Assembly (NCBI GenBank): GCA_000004985.1
Contig: GG738846.1
Length of the DNA stretch: 64,000 nucleotides
Strand: one strand, 5' to 3'
Origin: Naegleria gruberi
Lineage: Eukaryota
Part shown: piece after piece, positions 1 through 11,674 of the stretch
Layout of the letters: every line of letters begins with the position of its first letter
Position numbering within the stretch: the stretch's first letter is position 1
Notes under the pieces: generated by a model
Told to the model about the DNA's origin: nothing
The model's input: only the letters and a program-made list of their open reading frames with translations
The model's database searches: none
Translations under genes and position numbers: made by a program

Positions 1-692
1 ATGGAACTTTTCAATTTTCTAGATTTTCCTCTGAAACCATATGCTTGATCTTGTAATTGTTCTGTTCTTTCTACGAGAGTTTCTAATTTTTCTCCTCTCT
101 CAATAACTTTGTCAATATTTGAAATCATTACATCTTTGGTGGCATCTATTTGATTTTTAAGTTTGTAAATTTTATCATTTTCAAAATTATTGTAATGAGC
201 CATTCTATCTTTAATAATACTTGAAACAGCCTTATAGGTTTGATTTCCAAAACTGTTGTTACTAAAACCTTGTCTCTTAAATTGTGTTTCTACATCATCA
301 ATAAAATTATAACAAATTCTCATTGGACATTCTGCATCGGAACAAACAAGAAAAAGATATTTGTTATCCACAACTTTGTAATGAAAATTAAATGTTGCTT
401 GTGTTAGTGTTCGTTTGTGATTAACATGAGAAATCTTTTCTCCAATACTTAGACAAGTTTGTCTAATAATTTGAGCGTGTTGATGACTTGTCCCTGAAAA
501 ACTTCCAACAAAATTTCCATTACTTATTGTCAATCCACGAAAATATTCTCCAATTAAAATACACGATGATGATGAATCGGTAGAGGAAGCATTAGGATTT
601 GATGTATAATATTCAGATGAATCAATGGCATCCTTGAAAACAGATATGAGTCCATAAACAAGTTGTGCCGGAGAAGAGGAGGATGAAGACAT
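1..692 (-). CDS. Longin-domain R-SNARE, VAMP7-like. Partial: the 3' part of the gene, encoding the transmembrane anchor, runs off the window start.
   Basis: Reverse-strand ORF from the ATG at 692 (A-rich context) with no stops down to position 1. The N-terminal longin segment reads FNFHYKVVDNKYLFLVCSDAE, close to VAMP7 YLFHYICQDRIVYLCITDDDF. The SNARE motif reads NIDKVIERGEKLETLVERTEQL, with the zero-layer Arg in RGEKLE matching VAMP7 RGERLELLIDKTENL. It is missing from the ORF track only because it reaches the window edge. Confidence 0.6.
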   Translation of the reverse strand, partial: MSSSSSSPAQLVYGLISVFKDAIDSSEYYTSNPNASSTDSSSSCILIGEYFRGLTISNGNFVGSFSGTSHQHAQIIRQTCLSIGEKISHVNHKRTLTQATFNFHYKVVDNKYLFLVCSDAECPMRICYNFIDDVETQFKRQGFSNNSFGNQTYKAVSSIIKDRMAHYNNFENDKIYKLKNQIDATKDVMISNIDKVIERGEKLETLVERTEQLQDQAYGFRGKSRKLKSS

Positions 693-893
693 TTTTTGAT
701 CGTTGTTTTTGTGTGCTATCTTAGAGAGTTAATTAGAACCTCAACAACCACACAGTATTAAAATTTCTCTCACTCAAAATGTACCAAGTTTTGACGGTGT
801 AACAATCCATCCTCGAGAAAATGTTTCAAAGTAACAACGTTTAAAAACAATACAAAATAAATTCAGAAAGGATTTAAGGATGTGAAAGAGGAT

Positions 894-1043
894 AAATTTA
901 TATGACCTCGGTTGGATATTTGAATAGTAATTAAAGGTTCTTAATTTAAAAAAAACAGACAAACAATGTTTCTTATTTGATACTATAGTAATGAACAAGT
1001 ATTCTTGTGTTGGGATTATTTATAATCTAATTTGTGGAAAAGG
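894..1043. repeat. Copy A of a roughly 155 bp dispersed repeat (other copies at 4757-4919 and 6888-7050).
   Basis: Shared core TGTTTCTTATTTGATACTATAGTAATGAACAAGTATTCTTGTGTTGGGATTATTTATAATCYAATTTGTGGAAAAGG, preceded by AAATTTATWTGACCTC..TAATTAA..TTAATTTAAAAAAAA. The three copies are near-identical in the core and diverged in the 5' half. Confidence 0.6.
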
Positions 1044-4000
1044 GATTCAAGGAATGCCCTGTTGATTTTGGATAACGTTTTTAAGAATTTGTTATTATTG
1101 GATTTGCAAAATTATATTCTCCAAACAAGATTAATGAAAGTCCTAGCCTAGTTTAAAGATGGGAGGGTAAGAGGAATCTTGGTATTCATTTATTTAGACG
1201 ATTATTAAATCATTCAAAAGATCAGTTTATCTTGATTAGTTCTAAAGGATTTAGAAAAATTTGATTCCTCATTCAAAAAGACAAACGTTGCGAAAAAAAG
1301 AAACCTCTTCTCCACTCATGTGTAAAATAATATTCTCTCCCCACTCGTGGGAAATGTAATGTTTTTTAAAAGAAAACCAATAATAAACCAATAAATAAAG
1401 CCCATTCTACAACTTCTACCTATTAGGTAGTATGTAACTTGGTTGCTGCTTTATTCAACAACAACAAACCTCAAAAAACCAAATCCACTACCAAAACAAA
1501 AACACTTCCAAATATTTCCACTACAACAATAAAACACCTTACCTTCTCTTCATGAATGCCTATAGCTATTTCCATCAAGAAATTACTTAAGGATATGTTT
1601 ATTAGTAGAGATGGTAATTAGTTGTACACTTTTGTAAATAGAAAGGAAGTTTAATGAACAACAATACAATAGTTTTAAATCACCTCATCCTAACAAGAAT
1701 ATAATGAGAAAAGTGAAAAAAACTTACCCAGCAACGATAATTCCATAGCCTTAACAAGAGAAGGGATTGGAATAAGAAGAATTATAATAAAAATAGTACC
1801 GTGGATCTTAGAAATCACAATTTGAAGAATCAGTAAAGCCCAATATTTCGTAATTTTCTAACCAACACCCCTAAATTTCTACCTCTCCTCCCCACTTGTA
1901 CTCTTTTTGCATACCTAGGAGTTTTGTTAGACGTTTATTAAAGTTTAGTAAAAATTTTAGAAGACAAAAAGATTACAGCTTTAAATTAAAGGTTTATCAA
2001 CAAAATAAAGTGTCGTTTCTGAAATACTAAATTTATTCTTCTCACACGCGTGTAGATTAATTCGCAAGAATAATAATAATAAATAATGATTGAGGATATC
2101 AACTTTTGTATAATATATAAACTCTAATACTTCTAATGGTTGCAACTAGCCTAAAAAACCATCTACTCAATTCAAAAAACTTTAAAAAACCATAAAAACA
2201 AATCTGAAATATCTGTAGTGCTTTAAATTTAAAATAAACACACAAATCATATAAAAAATTGTTAAAATTTTCATATATTTGATTAAGAAACCAGGTTAAT
2301 AATGATCCTATCTTGTTCCTGATAATGATATCCACTTAATATCTACCAAGCAATACTACAAAAGCTATTGCTTTACATAATTGGCTATCCAAATGGAAAT
2401 GTCATTTGACCAAATTATCTGTCACCTAATTGGATATGATTAAATGAAATCCAATAAAATAATAAATTATTAAAAAATTATTGACTTACTAGCCTACATA
2501 AGCTTAACGCTTACTGCGAATAAATAAGTATGTTAATATATTTCTAGAGAATGAAAATTCATTCCAATTTCCAACTCTCAGTACATTGAAGGGCTGGTAA
2601 AATTGTTTCAAATAACTTTAAGCATCATTGGATACTTTGAATCTAGCATCATCAGAACTTGTAAAAGAGTTTCATTTGAGTTTTTCAATCACGAAATCTT
2701 TCGAAAGCTCTGGTCTTTTGAACTCCTCAACTTTTCTTGGCTTGATGATTGTAAGGTTCAAGTTTTTTCTCTTTCTGGGTGGAGTGATGTTTTTCTGGAT
2801 TTTTTCTTGTTTCACACTTTTTTTCTTGTTCCTGTTTAATTCTTAATTCAGAATATGGTGTTTCATTAAGATTTTCTTCTACTTCCTCAACATCTTCCGT
2901 TCCATCAACAATAGAATCAGCAAGATTAGGGAATGTTTTAACTTCAGCAAATGCAGTAAAGAAAAAGTTGACATCAGGAAAAAGAAAGCTTCAATAAATG
3001 TGCAGGAAAGGTTTAAACATTTCTTGAATTATGCTCAAACAAATTTCAAAAATTGCTCAAACATTTTTCAAACCACTTTTTTAAAAAGGCGCCTTTTTAT
3101 TTCTTTTTGACTTTTCCGAAAATCTAATCTTCTTAATTAGGTTGAAGATTTTTAAAAATTAATGGTCTTTTTTATTTTATATTACTTTAAACCTAGAAAC
3201 TCTATTAAACGCTATGAGGAATGGATTTGTTTTCGATTGTAACTTACAAAATAAAGTGAATATTTTCGCTTATTAAGTATATCAGAACCACCTTGATTCC
3301 GAGTTGTTAAAAATTTTCGATGCTCAAAAAATTATTAGAAATGTCTGGCAATAACAAAAAAAGAAATCCACAAAAGAAACAACACTCTCCAAGTTCAAGA
3401 CTTGCTCAATAAAGATTTACATCCTTCAAACACCATACTAAACCAAACGGTACTAAGATCCACCATTGATTGATACTGGTGATGTTAAAGACTGTATTTA
3501 CCTCAACCATTACCATAATCACTACCTTCAAAATCAGCAATAATTGAGAATACTACAAACAAATTATCATCCTCGAATGTTGCTTTATCCAGGATCATCA
3601 ATCACCTAATAAATCAAAGAACCCCAAGATATTGTCAATAGCGTACACCAAGAAAAGGTTATGCCGACAATAGCGTAACCTTTTCTTAGTGACGAATCAA
3701 AGAACCCCAAGACATTGTGGCAAAGATCTGAAACACTGTTGTGTGATATCTTTGAAAAACCATCCGCTCTTAGTTGGTGCTTACTTCATTTTTAGAATTT
3801 TTGTAAATTCTCCTTGTCGAATAGATAAACGAAAGTCAAATGAAACGAAAGATATTTAATCAGAGGATTTCCTCTTACTACGATGATCATAGAACCGGCA
3901 GCTAACAGTCAATGGCATAACCTTTTCTTAGTACGTTATCACTTTATCAAGACGTTTTGTTCGTTTAATGGAAACATGTTTTTCTTTTCCCCGGTCAACA

Positions 4001-4756
4001 ATTTTGATCCAAATATTCCCTTCCTAATACTTATTTCCTTTGGATCATAAAAATTTTCTGTATAATAAGTTTTCTCCTTTTCATCAAACATTGGTTTCAG
4101 TGATCGTTCAAACTCATCCAATGACATAACAAAATGTATTTCGAAGTTGTCTTAGATGTAATGTCAATCTTGTTGCGTAGGTTCGAAATATTGTTGGCAC
4201 ACAAAAGAACAATCATCAAACAAAGGTTCGTTGATGTGGAGTTTTATAATTTTAGTAGTAATTTTTTTTTGATCAATATCAAAATTGGGATTCTCTTAAT
4301 ATGCAATACCTTAAAACTCGTCTTACAATCCTAAAACTAAATACTTTATAGTGAGTGGTAATATAATTTCTCCTCTATTCAAATGTATCAAACAAAAAAC
4401 TGCTCTGAATAAATCTTAATACCTAAAAACAGCAATAACAAGGCTACAAACTACCTAAGAATAGGTAGATGTTATAGTGTGAGGAATTCCATAACTCAGA
4501 AAGCGAGAATATTAATATCCAATATCTATCCCAAACCGCTTTTTTAGGATATGGCTTTTTAAAAAGGGCAATCTGGTTGAATTTTTACTTATTTATGGCT
4601 ATGGAATTTTATAAAATATATTGTTTCTAGGGATGTAGTGACATGTGTCCTCCTACCAATAATCCAATAACAATATCAACCACTATTAAGGATTTTTGGA
4701 ACAATTTTACGTATTGTGGTAAATTTCTAGATTTGTAAATTAAAAGAAATATCTAG

Positions 4757-4919
4757 AAATTTATTTGACCTCAGTAATTACATTTATATGTTATGCAATG
4801 GTAATTAATTTAAAAAAAAAAGACAAACAATTCTGCAAACATTGTTTCTTATTTGATACTATAGTAATGAACAAGTATTCTTGTGTTGGGATTATTTATA
4901 ATCCAATTTGTGGAAAAGG
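4757..4919. repeat. Dispersed repeat copy B (inside duplication unit 1).
   Basis: Same core as copy A, plus an 11 bp insertion ATTCTGCAAAC. It lies about 270 bp upstream of the lipid-kinase ORF. Confidence 0.6.
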
Positions 4920-5052
4920 TACCTATTTTATTAGTTGATCATCACGATCCATTATTACTTTATAAAAACAATTTCAATTAAACCTTAAATTGTATAATAA
5001 TTGATTTAAAGGAAAGGCAGAAGATGTTTTCCAACGAATAATATTTCCCAAA

Positions 5053-5524
5053 TTGCATGATCATTTCACAACTAAAAATCAAATTCCGATGCAGTACATG
5101 AAAACCCAATGCAGAGATGATGGCGTGAGATGTGCATTTGAATTGGTGACCAAATATCAATGTGATTTACTTTTTGGAATTGGAGGTGATGGCAGTCTGG
5201 GAAGTGTACTAAACGGATTGATTTTAGGTTGTCTACATTTGAATCCAAATGTTCTCAACTCAGAGGAATCATCAAGGCAACTCCCAGTCCATTTAGGAGT
5301 AATACCCAGTGGTACAGGAAATGATTTTGTTAGAACTCTATTGGAAACATCTGGAGATTACTATTTGGACATAGTTGATGGTTTTGAAAATGGATATTTT
5401 GAGGATAGTGTCAGTAAAATTGTGGACATGATCATTTCTGATAGCAAGACGATACCTATTGATGTTGGAAGAATGGATTATACTCCATCATCAATTGATG
5501 AGGAATTTTCTAATGGGAATGATA
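5053..5524 (+). pseudogene. Truncated duplicate of the 5' part of the lipid-kinase gene (DAGK catalytic domain). It is cut off by the N-gap, so it is either an assembly or haplotype copy or a partial duplicate.
   Basis: Identical to the first 157 codons of the 7184-8239 ORF except one Y-to-C difference. The ORF runs straight into the N run at 5525. Confidence 0.5.
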
Positions 5525-5584
5525 CGACTGGAGGNNNNNNNNNNNNNNNNNNNNNNNNNNNNNNNNNNNNNNNNNNNNNNNNNN
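5525..5584. other. Assembly gap (60 N).
   Basis: A run of n characters in the sequence. Confidence 1.
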
Positions 5585-7655
5585 AATAGAGTGAATATTT
5601 TCGCTTATTAAGTATATCAGAACCACCTTGATTCCGAGTTGTTAAAAATTTTCGATGCTCAAAAAATTATTAGAAATGTCTGGCAATAACAAAAAAAGAA
5701 ATCCACAAAAGAAACAACACTCTCCAAGTTCAAGACTTGCTCAATAAAGATTTACATCCTTCAAACACCATACTAAACCAAACGGTACTAAGATCCACCA
5801 TTGATTGATACTGGTGATGTTAAAGACTGTATTTACCTCAACCATTACCATAATCACTACCTTCAAAATCAGCAATAATTGAGAATACTACAAACAAATT
5901 ATCATCCTCGAATGTTGCTTTATCCAGGATCATCAATCACCTAATAAATCAAAGAACCCCAAGATATTGTCAATAGCGTACACTAAGAAAAGGTTATGCC
6001 GACAATAGCATAACCTTTTCTTAGTGACGAATCAAAGAACCCCAAGATATTGTCAATGGCATAACCTTTTCTTAGTACGTTATCACTTTATCAAGACGTT
6101 TTGTTCGTTTAATGGAAACATGTTTTTCTTTTCCCCGGTCTACAATTTTGATCCAAATATTCCCTTCCTAATACTTATTTCCTTTGATTTCATAAAAATT
6201 TTCAGTATAATAAGTTTTCTCCTTTTCATCAAACACTGGTTTCAATGATCGTTCAAACTCATCCAATGACATAACAAAATGTATTTCGAAGTTGTCTTAA
6301 ATGTAATGTCAATCTTGTTGCGTAGGTTCGAAATATTGTTGGCACACAAAAGAACAATCATCAAACAAAGGTTCGTTGATGTGGAGTTTTATAATTTTAG
6401 TAGTAATTTTTTTTGATCAATATCAAAATTGGGATTCTCTTAATATGCAATACCTTAAAACTCGTCTTACAATCCTAAAACTAAATACTTTATAGTGAGT
6501 GGTAATATAATTTCTCCTCTATTCAAATGTATCAAACAAAAAACTGCTCTGAATAAATCTTAATACCTAAAAACAGCAATAACAAGGCTACAAACTACCT
6601 AAGAATAGGTAGATGTTATAGTGTGAGGAATTCCATAACTCAGAAAGCGAGAATATTAATATCCAATATCTATCCCAAACCGCTTTTTTAGGATATGGCT
6701 TTTTAAAAAGGGCAATCTGGTTGAATTTTTACTTATTTATGGCTATGGAATTTTATAAAATATATTGTTTCTAGGGATGTAGTGACATGTGTCCAATAAC
6801 AATACATCAACCACTATTAAGGATTTTTGGAACAATTTTACGTATTGTGGTAAATTTCTAGATTTGTAAATTAAAAGAAATATCCAGAAATTTATTTGAC
6901 CTCAGTAATTACATTTATATGTTATGCAATGGTAATTAATTTAAAAAAAAAAGACAAGCAATTCTGCAAACATTGTTTCTTATTTGATACTATAGTAATG
7001 AACAAGTATTCTTGTGTTGGGATTATTTATAATCCAATTTGTGGAAAAGGTACCTATTTTATTAGTTGATCATCACGATCCATTATTACTTTATAAAAAC
7101 AATTTCAATTAAACCTTAAATTGTGTAATAATTGATTTAAAGGAAAGGCAGAAGATGTTTTCCAACGAATAATATTTCCCAAATTGCATGATCATTTCAC
7201 AACTAAAAATCAAATTCCGATGCAGTGCATGAAAACCCAATGCAGAGATGATGGCGTGAGATGTGCATTTGAATTGGTGACCAAATATCAATGTGATTTA
7301 CTTTTTGGAATTGGAGGTGATGGCAGTCTGGGAAGTGTACTAAACGGATTGATTTTAGGTTGTCTACATTTGAATCCAAATGTTCTCAACTCAGAGGAAT
7401 CATCAAGGCAACTCCCAGTCCATTTAGGAGTAATACCCAGTGGTACAGGAAATGATTTTGTTAGAACTCTATTGGAAACATCTGGAGATTACTATTTGGA
7501 CATAGTTGATGGTTTTGAAAATGGATATTTTGAGGATAGTGTCAGTAAAATTGTGGACATGATCATTTCTGATAGCAAGACGATACCTATTGATGTTGGA
7601 AGAATGGATTATACTCCATCATCAATTGATGAGGAATTTTCTAATGGGAATGATA
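5585..7655. repeat. Unit 2 of the tandem duplication.
   Basis: Matches 3226-5524; see unit 1. Confidence 0.8.
6888..7050. repeat. Dispersed repeat copy C (inside duplication unit 2).
   Basis: Near-identical to copy B. Confidence 0.6.
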
Positions 7656-8239
7656 CGACTGGAGTGAAACTGAAAGATTGTAATGAGATGATGAAAAGCC
7701 GATTCTTCCTTAATGCATCAACGATTGGTATTGGTCCAGAGATTTTAAAGAGTGTCAATGATCCAAATTCTTTCCTTCCTAAGAGTTTACAATATTATAT
7801 TCAACCAATATTGAAAGAGTTCACATATAAAAATCCACTACTTGAATTGGATATTACAAGCGAAAAGAAGATTTGCAAAAAGATGCAACTAGTCATTGTT
7901 TCCAATGGGAGGTATGTCAATAACGGATTCAAAATGAATCCATTTGCAAGTTTAACCAATAACCAACTTGATTTGTGCATTGTTGAGGATGTTGGTGTAT
8001 TTGATTTACATCTTTTCTATTACCTCAAATATGGAACTCATTTGAATTATCCTAAAGTCATTATGGAAAGCACAAAAAGTCTCACTGTTGATACTAAAGA
8101 ATGTGTATTCGTTGAATGTGATGGTGATGTTATTGGGATGTTACCAGTGATGTACAAAGTAATGCCATCAGTGGTGAATGTTCTGGTTCCAAAAAGTTTC
8201 ACCCCAACAGCTGCAAATAATAAATTAAATATTAATTAA
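7184..8239 (+). CDS. Lipid kinase with a diacylglycerol-kinase catalytic (DAGK_cat) domain, sphingosine/ceramide-kinase-like. The 5' end is uncertain: the first in-frame ATG is at 7220, and upstream exons may exist.
   Basis: Motifs DLLFGIGGDGSLGSVLNGL (GGDG) and GVIPSGTGNDF are characteristic of the DAGK/sphingosine kinase catalytic fold. The usual N-terminal NPxSGG-type segment is not in the ORF; an in-frame stop at 7133 limits any upstream extension without splicing. Confidence 0.55.
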   Translation: MHDHFTTKNQIPMQCMKTQCRDDGVRCAFELVTKYQCDLLFGIGGDGSLGSVLNGLILGCLHLNPNVLNSEESSRQLPVHLGVIPSGTGNDFVRTLLETSGDYYLDIVDGFENGYFEDSVSKIVDMIISDSKTIPIDVGRMDYTPSSIDEEFSNGNDTTGVKLKDCNEMMKSRFFLNASTIGIGPEILKSVNDPNSFLPKSLQYYIQPILKEFTYKNPLLELDITSEKKICKKMQLVIVSNGRYVNNGFKMNPFASLTNNQLDLCIVEDVGVFDLHLFYYLKYGTHLNYPKVIMESTKSLTVDTKECVFVECDGDVIGMLPVMYKVMPSVVNVLVPKSFTPTAANNKLNIN

Positions 8240-8412: not shown

Positions 8413-9456
8413 ATGTCTACCTCTTTCATTTATAAGGGTCAATTGACCGGTCACAACGGTATGTTGATAACACAATTTTAATACTGATGAACATTATATA
8501 TTTGCTTCCATACATTTAATACAAATTATTAATATGTATAATTATTATTAATATAATATTTTTCTAAAGGTTGGGTCACTTGTTTGTCCACCTCTGCTGC
8601 CAATCCAAACATCTTGGTTTCTGGTTCCCGTGATAAGTCTATTGTTGTCTGGGAATTGACTAAGGAACAAGGTGCTTATGGTGTTCCAAAGAGATCCCTC
8701 ACTGGTCACGCTCACTATGTCTCTGACATCTGTATGACCGCTGATGCTCAATATGTCTTGTCTGGTTCTTGGGATAAGACTCTCAGATTGTGGAATTTGA
8801 GCAATGGTAACTGTGAAAGAAACTTCTTGGGTCACACCAACGATATCTTGTCTGTTTCCTTCTCTCACGATGACAGACAAATCGTCTCTGGTTCCCGTGA
8901 TAAGACCATCAAGTTGTGGAACACTTTGGGTGAATGCAAGTACAACATTACCGATAAGGGTCACAAGGAATGGGTCAGTTGTGTTAGATTCGTTGCCAAC
9001 AAGGAAAAGCCATTGATCATTTCTGCTGGTTGGGACAAGATTGTCAAGTTGTGGGATTTGTCCACTTGTACCTTGAACACCAATTTGGTTGGTCACACTG
9101 GTTACATTAACTCTGTCTGTGTTTCTCCTGATGCTTCCTTGTGTGCTTCTGGTGGTAAGGACGGTGTTGCCGTTTTGTGGGATTTGACTAAGGGTGAACA
9201 CTTGTATCACTTGCCTTTGGATGGTAACGATGTTATCAATGCTTTGGCTTTCTCCCCAACTAAGTACTGGTTGTGTGCTGCTACTGATAATTGTATCAAG
9301 ATCTGGGACCTCCAATCCAAGACTGTCCTCGCTGAATTGGTTCCTGAATCAAAGGGTAACAAGAAGCCAGCTTGTATTTCTCTTGCCTGGTCTGCTGATG
9401 GTACTACTTTGTTCTCTGGTTACACTGATAACACCATCCGTGTCTGGGGTTGTTAA
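8413..9456 (+). CDS. RACK1: RACK1 (Gbeta-like WD40 ribosomal scaffold, Asc1/Cpc2 orthologue). Two exons: 8413-8458 and 8570-9456.
   Basis: Exon 1 reads [16 protein letters not shown], then a GTATGT donor and a 111 bp AT-rich intron ending ...CTAAAG. The split Gly codon is restored, giving GWVTCLST... The spliced 310-aa product aligns along its whole length with RACK1 (WD repeats, GHxxxV..., [12 protein letters not shown]). Confidence 0.85.
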
Positions 9457-9629: not shown

Positions 9630-11674
9630 ATGTCATCAACACTATCACCAGCAACATCAAATCGTATGGAAAGGGATGCCATGGCTAGTGCTCAAGCCAA
9701 ACAAAAGATGGTTTCGTTTCATAAGAATTTATTGAGCCCTACAACAATTTCGCAAGACGAAAGTAAGAGAAGAAAATCCTCACCTCCACCCATACTTAAA
9801 AAAGAACCGAATCAAGAATTACCCAGAAAGAGAATACTCTCAATCGCAAGCGGTACGGATGAATTACATAAGCAGTCGGCAAGTGGTCTCATTTCCAATC
9901 TAGTCTCACAATTAGAAAAACAGGGAAAAACAACTGAGCAAAGTGTTGTTGTAAACAACAATTCAAAACCAATTTCAAAAAAGCTAAATGAAATGAGTAA
10001 TGAAAATTCATCATGTTCAATTAATGGTGTGATGCAACTTGTTTCTGATATTGTAAAATTATGTGAATTTTTAAAAGATTCAAAATTGAAAAAAAATGGA
10101 CAATTAATTTATGACAGATTATCTCATATTAAGGTAAGTTTTGTTTTTTTACATTACGGACTCTAAAATTAAAATTACAGGATGAAATTACAAATTGGGA
10201 TAAGAAAATTGATGAAAATGATGAAAAAATTTCCAAGGCTATTCATTTATTGAAATCTCAACTTGGTGATGTCTATCAATTATTGTTGAAAATACAAAAG
10301 AGTAATTGGTTTGTAGATTTGAGATTTGCAAAAAAGGCCAAAAAATTAACAAATGAATTAGATAATGTGACAACGTTATTGGGTTTAAGTATTTCCTATC
10401 TTAAATCTTCAAAGGAAACTATTGATATTAATGTTTATGAGGTTGACCATAGAAATAACTTGGCATTGGAAGGTGACAAGTATTATTTAGGACATGGAGT
10501 GAGTCAAAATTATGAAACAGCTTTCAACTTCTATTTACAAGCAGCCAATCTAGACGAACCAAGATGTCAATACATTATTGGGACTATGCACATTGAAGGA
10601 AAGGGAATTGAGCAGAATGGAAGAAAAGGAGTCAAATGGATTCTCAAATCTTCAATGCAAAATTACGCAGATGCTCTTAATCAGATGGGTATTTACTATG
10701 AGAAGGGATTCATTGTTGAAGTTAATTATCCACTTGCAGCAAAATTCTATTGTAAAGCTAGTCAATTGTCACATTTGGATGGTATGACAAATTATGCCGC
10801 TTTCCTTAGACAAGGAAAAGGAACTGAGAAGAATATTCAAAAAGCACTATCACTTCTCATAAAGGCTTGTGAGAAGAATTACGATAAGGCTCAAAATGAA
10901 TTGGGATTCATGTACTATAAGGGATTAGGAGTTGATCAAAATACAAAGCAAGCAGTTGAATTATTTACAATGGCAGCAGATAGGGGGAATGCGGTAGCTC
11001 TGAATAATCTTGGAATATCCTATGAGGATGGCATGGGTGTGGTTAGAGATTATGCCAAGGCAACTGTGTGTTATGAACAATCTGTAGAGCTTGGTAATGT
11101 AAATGCACTCAACAATTTAGGATATATTAAATTGTTACAACATGATTATGAGAGTGCATTGGATTTGTTTCATAAGGCAGCTGATAGATGTAGTGCAGAT
11201 GCCATGTATAATCTTTCAAATGTTTACAGAAAGGGATTAGGGGTGAGTGCAGACATTTCAATCTCAATCAAATATTTACACAAAGCTGCTGCTAATGGTC
11301 ATGTCAAATCTCAAAAAATGTTGGGAGATTTGTTCTATTCTGGTTTGGAAAATGTTGTCGAGAAGGATAAGAAACAAGCAGCAAGCTTCTACTATAAGGC
11401 TGGTGTTAATGGTGATGCAGAGAGTTGTAACTCTCTTGGATGCATGTATGAGGATGGATGTGAAGATGTTTTAGAGAGAAATGAAGAAACAGCTTTTAAA
11501 TGGTTCAGAAAAGCCTCTGATTTGGGCTCAGAGAATGGAATGGTCAACCTGGCGAGCATTTACGAGAGGAGAAACCAAACAGATCAAGCTGTCAAGCTTC
11601 TCAAAAGAGCTTCATCACTGGGTAATCAAAAAGCACTTGAAAAATTAGAATCCTTCTCCAAGTTCAATATGTAA
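9630..11674 (+). CDS. Sel1-repeat (TPR-like) protein of about 666 aa. Two exons: 9630-10133 and 10181-11674.
   Basis: The two ORFs are in the same frame after removing a 47 bp intron (GTAAGT...AAATTACAG). The C-terminal two-thirds is a run of Sel1 repeats (...ALNNLGISYEDGMGV..., ...AMYNLSNVYRKGLGV..., ...NSLGCMYEDGCED...). Confidence 0.6.

Follow-up and report, generated by a model that had tools for sequence, protein, structure and literature searches.

A hairpin-bearing repeat in Naegleria gruberi is very probably the 5' end of a bacterial-type lipid-kinase gene, accompanied by a decaying fragment of it

Introduction

Within a 64,000-nucleotide stretch of the Naegleria gruberi genome (GenBank assembly GCA_000004985.1, contig GG738846.1; hereafter the window) a sequence of roughly 155 bp that can be drawn with two hairpins occurs three times, at positions 894-1043 (copy A), 4757-4919 (copy B) and 6888-7050 (copy C), and the question raised by this locus is what kind of element such a repeat represents. 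A previous reading made from the letters alone (the sequence-only reading) placed the copies upstream of gene starts and proposed a miniature inverted-repeat transposable element (MITE) or short interspersed nuclear element (SINE), a small structured non-coding RNA (ncRNA) gene, or a shared promoter module. Our analysis indicates that the repeat is very probably the 5' end of a lipid-kinase gene that was doubled by an assembly duplication, giving copies B and C, together with a decaying fragment of that 5' end, copy A. The repeat is an ordinary feature of a known kind, and the sequence-only reading is therefore only partly supported, as its observation was accurate but its interpretation largely wrong.

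The conserved core as a first coding exon

The three copies do lie where they had been placed, all on the plus strand, and the 62-nt core that they share is present with one mismatch in copy A and none in copies B and C, compared with 0 matches in 100 shuffled sequences. The perfect 16-nt palindrome GGATTATTTATAATCC is found at 4889-4904 in copy B and at 7020-7035 in copy C, and the C-to-T variant described for copy A occupies 1013-1028. Read in frame, the core is ATG AAC AAG TAT TCT TGT GTT GGG ATT ATT TAT AAT CCA ATT TGT GGA AAA G|GT and translates as MNKYSCVGIIYNPICGKG, the NPxxG start of a DAGK/YegS catalytic domain, and the palindrome corresponds to the codons Gly-Ile-Ile-Tyr-Asn-Pro (GIIYNP), of which it would be a by-product.

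The gene model that follows from this frame has a single intron and lies on the plus strand. At copy B, which comprises about 110 nt of 5' flank and 5' untranslated region (5'UTR) followed by exon 1, a 52-nt first exon (4867-4918; ATG...AAAAG) ends in phase 1 and encodes MNKYSCVGIIYNPICGK(G). It is followed by a 93-nt intron (4919-5011; GTACCT...TTTAAAG), whose GT donor at 4919 and AG acceptor at 5010-5011 give a phase-1 join that restores the frame to the long kinase open reading frame (ORF) of exon 2 (5012-5534), the latter being truncated by a scaffold gap. The corresponding features at copy C belong to a complete gene, with exon 1 at 6998-7049, a 93-nt intron at 7050-7142 (donor at 7050, acceptor at 7141-7142), and exon 2 at 7143-8239, which runs through the stop codon; the spliced product has 382 amino acids.

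Protein comparisons bear on this model in several ways. The spliced kinase matches the Pfam families DAGK_cat with 56.7 bits (cut-off 23.6) and YegS_C with 67.4 bits (cut-off 27). With the 18 exon-1 residues included the DAGK_cat match begins at profile position 4, whereas without exon 1 it begins at position 26 and scores 47.9 bits, a loss of about 9 bits. The alignment of PDB chain 4wrr_A to the kinase begins at residue 3, and in a multiple alignment across the proposed junction VGIIYNPICGKGKAEDV matches IFIVNPKAGKGKALKAA and FVIFNPASGRGRGAKRI, the junction GKG|KAED being collinear with the bacterial homologues. Because exon 1 extends the DAGK_cat match, and because the alignments with 4wrr_A and the homologues span the junction, the repeat core is predicted to be the true start codon and first exon of the kinase, lying behind its 5'UTR and proximal promoter.

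Copies B and C would accordingly mark the ordinary transcription and translation start of a single-intron, YegS/BmrU-type (DAGK_cat) lipid-kinase gene. Of the repeat, about 110 nt would be promoter-proximal DNA together with 5'UTR, and the ATG and 52-nt first coding exon would make up the rest. This exon would provide the catalytic domain with its nucleotide-binding start, NPxxG(K)G, and would be joined to exon 2 over the 93-nt GT-AG intron. The notion of a promoter module holds only in the trivial sense that the repeat includes the promoter-proximal DNA and 5'UTR of the kinase, as the conserved core itself reads as first coding exon. In the same way, the distances previously given to the ATG of the neighbouring SNARE gene (at 692 on the minus strand) and to the long ORF of the kinase were roughly right, but it is not correct to place copies B and C upstream of the kinase gene, since they contain its predicted start codon and first exon.

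The kinase corresponds to N. gruberi XP_002682720 (NAEGRDRAFT_62024), which is annotated as a protein of 339 amino acids beginning at an internal methionine (MQCMKTQ), and which therefore lacks exon 1, 43 N-terminal residues and the NPxxG motif. Its motif order, an N-terminal beta-strand, the NPxxG(K)G loop, GGDG and PxGTGNDF, is that of the YegS/BmrU/DgkB-type kinases (PF00781 plus PF19279), an order that the bacterial homologues and the PDB entries 2qv7 and 4wrr share. Unlike these, the Naegleria gene is eukaryotic and carries a 93-nt intron directly after the NPxxGKG codons, and its product shows only about 23-33% identity to any other protein found. Among 5.8 billion proteins searched there was no close relative except the same gene in a second strain, and all other matches, in the same identity range, were to bacterial-type YegS/BmrU proteins. 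Lateral gene transfer, with the intron gained since, is a candidate explanation for this distribution. Neither the repeat nor the kinase is present at the orthologous SNARE locus of N. fowleri or on a related metagenome contig. A SNORD34-like Rfam match at the start of kinase exon 2 (7144-7227, plus strand) scored 22.7 bits against a gathering threshold of 38 (E = 0.077) and is almost certainly due to chance.

Duplicated arms around a scaffold gap

Copies B and C lie within two long arms that flank a scaffold gap of 50 N (5535-5584). The left arm (3250-5534), probably the end of one contig or one haplotype, extends exactly to one edge of the gap, and the right arm (5585-7665), probably the start of a second contig or the other haplotype, begins exactly at the other. 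The arms, of 2.1-2.3 kb, are 97.7-99.1% identical, with 4 differences in the 859 positions compared around the element. Two contigs of one metagenome sample (ERZ929261), L001 and L008, represent a second N. gruberi-like strain. L001 carries the kinase locus once and uninterrupted, and it differs from the window at 3 of 1149 positions in the coding sequence (one change being non-synonymous) and at 2 of 93 in the intron. It covers three of the four positions that distinguish the arms, with the B state at 7125 and the C state at 6958 and 7227.

Because the arms abut the gap exactly and show allele-level divergence, and because L001 is single-copy and mosaic with respect to them, copies B and C most likely represent one locus assembled twice, and as such would not be independent of each other; the origin of the pair appears to be allelic or to lie in the assembly. 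We would envisage two overlapping contig ends, probably both haplotypes of a heterozygous strain, that were left unmerged and were linked by the 50-N gap; the sequenced strain, NEG-M, is heterozygous. The arms also differ by a 154-nt indel, which is a copy-number change of a short hairpin-containing repeat and would explain why the assembler did not merge them. Arms that end at both edges of an N-run, allele-level divergence and a single-copy independent contig are features common to uncollapsed haplotypes and contig-overlap artefacts, as are differing copy numbers of short repeats inside the arms.

The alternative is that a true tandem duplication of recent date produced B and C, which would leave a truncated kinase copy upstream of an intact one. 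The 154-nt indel and the base differences of about 1-2% between the arms would fit such an event. It is nevertheless unlikely, as both arm ends fall exactly on the edges of the gap, the divergence is that of alleles, L001 shares variants with each of the arms, and the contig of the second strain has a single intact copy.

Two further observations concern the interior of the arms. The repeat unit of about 83 nt, with a 12-bp-stem hairpin (AAGAAAAGGTTA...TAACCTTTTCTT), occupies 3612-3940 and 5947-6063, with copy numbers that differ between the arms. A 62-aa ORF beginning with ATG (MSLDEFERSLKPMFDEKEK...) is intact in the left arm (3939-4127, minus strand), and its counterpart in the right arm (6083-6272, minus strand) carries a frameshift and is interrupted. 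No Pfam family matches this ORF, which probably does not represent a conserved gene.

Copy A as an inherited gene fragment

Copy A (894-1043, plus strand) is a 150-bp copy of the kinase 5' flank and exon 1 located in the intergenic region between the SNARE and kinase genes. It is 81% identical to copy B over 163 alignment columns (BLAST, E = 4e-41), although this identity is unevenly distributed: it reaches 98% in the 3' 84 nt and about 74% in the 5' part, which is about 66 nt long (17 mismatches in 66 positions versus 2 in 84; Fisher p = 2e-5). The 5' part is true homology, as its local alignment score of 29 compares with a maximum of 18 in shuffled sequences and of 17 in 1,696 real background windows. 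No homology between A and B was found past either edge of the copies, and a BLAST comparison of the whole 64 kb with itself returned no repeats other than this element and one large duplication; the stretch between copies A and B has no repeat elsewhere in the window. The window thus contains only two independent loci, copy A and B/C. The sequence-only reading had allowed that the three copies might amount to a local duplication plus one coincidence. A local duplication and one more copy, with none further, are indeed what was found, but the additional copy is a real paralogous fragment and not a coincidence.

What remains of the exon in copy A is a pseudo-exon (991-1042, plus strand). A tblastn search of this region with the kinase matched only the 18 exon-1 residues (991-1044), and within them CTA has replaced CCA, so that leucine stands in the place of the proline of the key motif. 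At the position equivalent to the exon end the next base is not followed by T and there is no GT splice donor, and read-through meets a stop after 24 codons. Downstream of copy A there is no ORF that resembles a kinase or matches Pfam, and the ORFs between copies A and B gave only sub-threshold noise in Pfam searches. Service as an alternative first exon was considered and rejected, since the homologous site lacks a GT and splicing from the next GT in phase would create a TGA with exon 2. A processed (retro)pseudogene was also rejected, as homology beyond the end of exon 1 scores 11 against a null mean of 11.4 and no poly-A tail is present.

The contig L008 of the second strain is collinear with window positions 1-2063 at 99% identity and has copy A in the same place; copy A is not an artefact. 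In L008 the ATG of the pseudo-exon is ATA, and the proline-to-leucine change is common to both strains. The between-strain changes in copy A (1 in 150 nt) resemble in rate those in the surrounding intergenic DNA (6 substitutions in 1,370 nt), and copy A is on this ground an inherited non-coding fragment that evolves roughly at the neutral rate. It appears to have no function. Copy A would thus have arisen as a DNA-level partial duplicate of the kinase 5' end, 3.9 kb upstream of it and in the same orientation, in a duplication older than the split of the two N. gruberi strains, and would since have drifted as non-coding sequence. It resembles other gene-fragment duplications or pseudo-exon relics in being a short promoter-plus-exon-1 segment near its parent gene, in the same orientation, with a disabling substitution, a lost donor and, in one strain, a lost start codon. 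It differs from the usual relic in that it is only 150 bp long, ends at the exact exon-intron junction, and combines segments of 74% and 98% identity.

One might instead suppose that copy A is a functional regulatory duplicate, in which the promoter, transcription start and 5'UTR of the kinase have been kept by selection and might drive an unannotated rightward transcript or co-regulate the divergent SNARE gene with the kinase. The contrast between the 98% identical core and the 5' part at about 74%, the divergent arrangement with the SNARE gene, whose ATG is 200-350 bp from copy A, and the retention of copy A in two strains would all suit such a role. The promoter part, however, is the one expected to be conserved and yet is the one that has diverged, the sole between-strain substitution strikes the supposedly conserved core (ATG to ATA) at a rate equal to that of neighbouring intergenic DNA, and nothing with an ORF or Pfam match lies downstream. 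Nor is the A-run/GACA motif enriched: as a common promoter motif, found also upstream of RACK1, it was rejected with 6 matches against 4.9 expected. A regulatory role for copy A is accordingly quite improbable, and a decaying fragment is the reading that we prefer.

Mobile-element and structured-RNA explanations

A non-autonomous mobile element of the MITE or SINE type, one copy of which donated or overlaps the first exon of the kinase, was among the first possibilities raised for this repeat. Like such elements, the repeat is small, AT-rich and sharply bounded. A 4-bp GGAT repeat flanks copy A, and L001 provides a third left-hand context, whose junction lies no more than 6 nt from the 5' boundary. 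The repeat differs from them in several respects, and the proposal is not supported. There are no terminal inverted repeats (the head-to-tail reverse-complement score is 5, against a null mean of 5.7-6.1), and no RNA polymerase III (Pol III)-type head is evident, as neither a tRNA-like match (ARAGORN), nor A and B boxes, nor an Rfam match was found. An A-rich or simple-repeat tail is likewise absent, since the repeat ends ...GTGGAAAAG at the exon boundary. A check for target-site duplications found nothing comparable to GGAT around B or C, copy B being without a matching flanking repeat; no convincing target-site duplication was seen.

Mobility would also lead one to expect further copies, and only two loci were found in a search that covered the 64 kb, the JGI metagenomes, viral contigs and called proteins. 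A scan with the 20-mer TGTTGGGATTATTTATAATC gave three chance matches without flanking similarity in the JGI metagenomes and none in the viral contigs, and a protein search with the 57-aa ORF that reads through copy B yielded no candidate among called proteins. Above all, the core encodes a motif homologous to that of bacterial kinases, and it is for this reason considered an ancestral part of the gene, not one acquired from an element. A mobile element is therefore a most improbable source of the repeat. A pair of long terminal repeats (LTRs) formed by copies A and B was also rejected, as there are no TG...CA ends, no primer-binding site or polypurine tract, and the identity is heterogeneous; moreover, the 3' "LTR" would be the ancestral kinase exon.

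The structured-RNA proposal is based on the hairpins, and might take the form of a minus-strand Pol III-type transcript that ends in the T10 run. Two short stems can indeed be drawn, the C-to-T change of copy A preserves a G-U pair, the core is followed on the minus strand by T8-T10, and there is a weak RprA-like Rfam match (E = 2.8). Rfam was scanned over the whole window at gathering thresholds, and at lax thresholds around copies A and C and on L001 and L008. At the gathering threshold there was no match in the window, lax matches over the core had E values of 2.8 or worse, and no family came near its gathering threshold. Eight folds (core and whole element, both strands, both loci) gave z values of 0.03, 0.41, -1.06, -0.74, 0.78, 1.74, 0.17 and -0.04, that is, from -1.06 to +1.74 and without a signal, and the ATACT/AGTAT stem is absent from the minimum-free-energy structure. 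The stems are no more stable than those of shuffled sequence.

Palindromes of this size are also common here, and rarity was rejected as an argument: the 64 kb contain 82 perfect inverted repeats with 7-bp arms and spacers of 0-4 nt, compared with about 43 in shuffled sequences, and several of these fall within the kinase ORF, three in addition to the palindrome of the core. The change that preserves the G-U pair is at the same time the proline-to-leucine substitution, and it is the only stem change (G-C to G-U) between the two independent loci. As the sequence is fully explained as coding, an ncRNA gene is extremely improbable. The predicted first exon, in contrast, accounts for the core, and the case illustrates how a coding exon in AT-rich DNA can mimic a "hairpin repeat".

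A possible conversion patch, and points that weigh against the proposed reading

The contrast of 17 mismatches in 66 positions with 2 in 84 requires a second process besides the original duplication. The near-identical tract between A and B, of 77-84 nt, starts right after a 12-nt indel and extends to the end of the homology, and the heterogeneous identity is most plausibly the result of a short patch of gene conversion, in which B later served as donor to A; the patch would be bounded by the 12-nt indel on one side and by the homology end on the other. Selection on the core of copy A, for instance as a promoter or short transcript, is an alternative that would equally produce this pattern, but it is less favoured, as the single change between the strains falls in the core and removes the ATG.

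Several points speak against the account as a whole or against parts of it. The conversion patch is deduced from a single sequence pair, to which the alternative of selection applies equally well as regards pattern. The predicted splice junction and the presumed transcription start were placed from protein homology alone, and the kinase donor, GTACCT, is unlike the textbook GTAAGT or GTATGT. As the searches of N. gruberi covered the 64-kb window, more copies may possibly exist elsewhere in its genome. With regard to B and C, the arms differ by the 154-nt indel, and the sequence itself holds no proof of a mis-join. There are in addition two coincidences at the edges of the repeat, which are taken up in turn.

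The first is that the A/B homology stops at the last nucleotide of exon 1, and that GGAT stands both before and after the copied segment. This may be due to chance, may reflect a 4-bp target duplication, or may hint at an RNA-templated origin. In the last case copy A, or its 98% identical patch, would have been templated by the free 5'-exon splicing intermediate of the kinase transcript, which could have occurred by reverse transcription and integration or by RNA-templated repair or conversion. The exact end of the tract at the last exon-1 nucleotide, the GGAT flanks and a possible start of the tract at the mRNA start are the features that bring this route to mind; we consider it very improbable.

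The second coincidence concerns the 5' boundary. The first 155 nt of L001 have no match in the window (L001:1-155 compared with window 4607-4761), and its homology starts at 4762, a breakpoint (4761/4762) only 5-6 nt from the A/B boundary at 4757. A perfect 13-bp inverted repeat (TAAATTTCTAGAT...ATCTAGAAATTTA) spans 4720-4763, and its right arm, which overlaps the first 7 nt of copy B, contains both the boundary and the breakpoint. The L001 breakpoint could represent a palindrome-associated fragile site or a structural polymorphism, or else one of the strains may have acquired a transposon there. Directly upstream of the kinase promoter the second strain has, in any event, a wholly different sequence.

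Neighbouring genes

The gene nearest to copy A is a VAMP7-like longin-SNARE (NAEGRDRAFT_29713; 1-692, minus strand), which is transcribed away from copy A and has its ATG about 200 bp from it. Its product shows 100% identity with N. gruberi XP_002682946 and 62% with the N. fowleri orthologue, and the SNARE and kinase have the consecutive UniProt accessions D2UZQ4 and D2UZQ5. The reference SNARE, XP_002682946, has 155 amino acids; the uninterrupted ORF of the second strain (L008:1373-2209) encodes 278, with longin and synaptobrevin domains and a transmembrane tail, and the ORF in the window is open over all 230 available codons. The reference model looks truncated.

On the other side, about 170 bp past the kinase stop, there is a RACK1-like WD40 gene (8413-9456, plus strand) with one short intron after codon 16, whose WD repeats are visible at the DNA level as a family of 126-nt periodicity. 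Further on, a long ORF (10250-11674, plus strand) encodes a Sel1/TPR-like repeat protein with recurring Y..G.GV..D motifs.

Implications

The repeat as such matters little beyond housekeeping. In the N. gruberi reference, a probable assembly duplication of 2.3 kb around a scaffold gap can be flagged, and the gene model of XP_002682720 (NAEGRDRAFT_62024) is in need of its first exon and 43 residues. One small gene-fragment duplication has been documented, with a possible gene-conversion patch. Should that fragment have been templated by RNA, it would exemplify an unusual way for exon-sized pieces of genes to arise in a heterolobosean. Of greater interest than the repeat is the gene to which it belongs, a bacterial-type kinase without a close eukaryotic relative.

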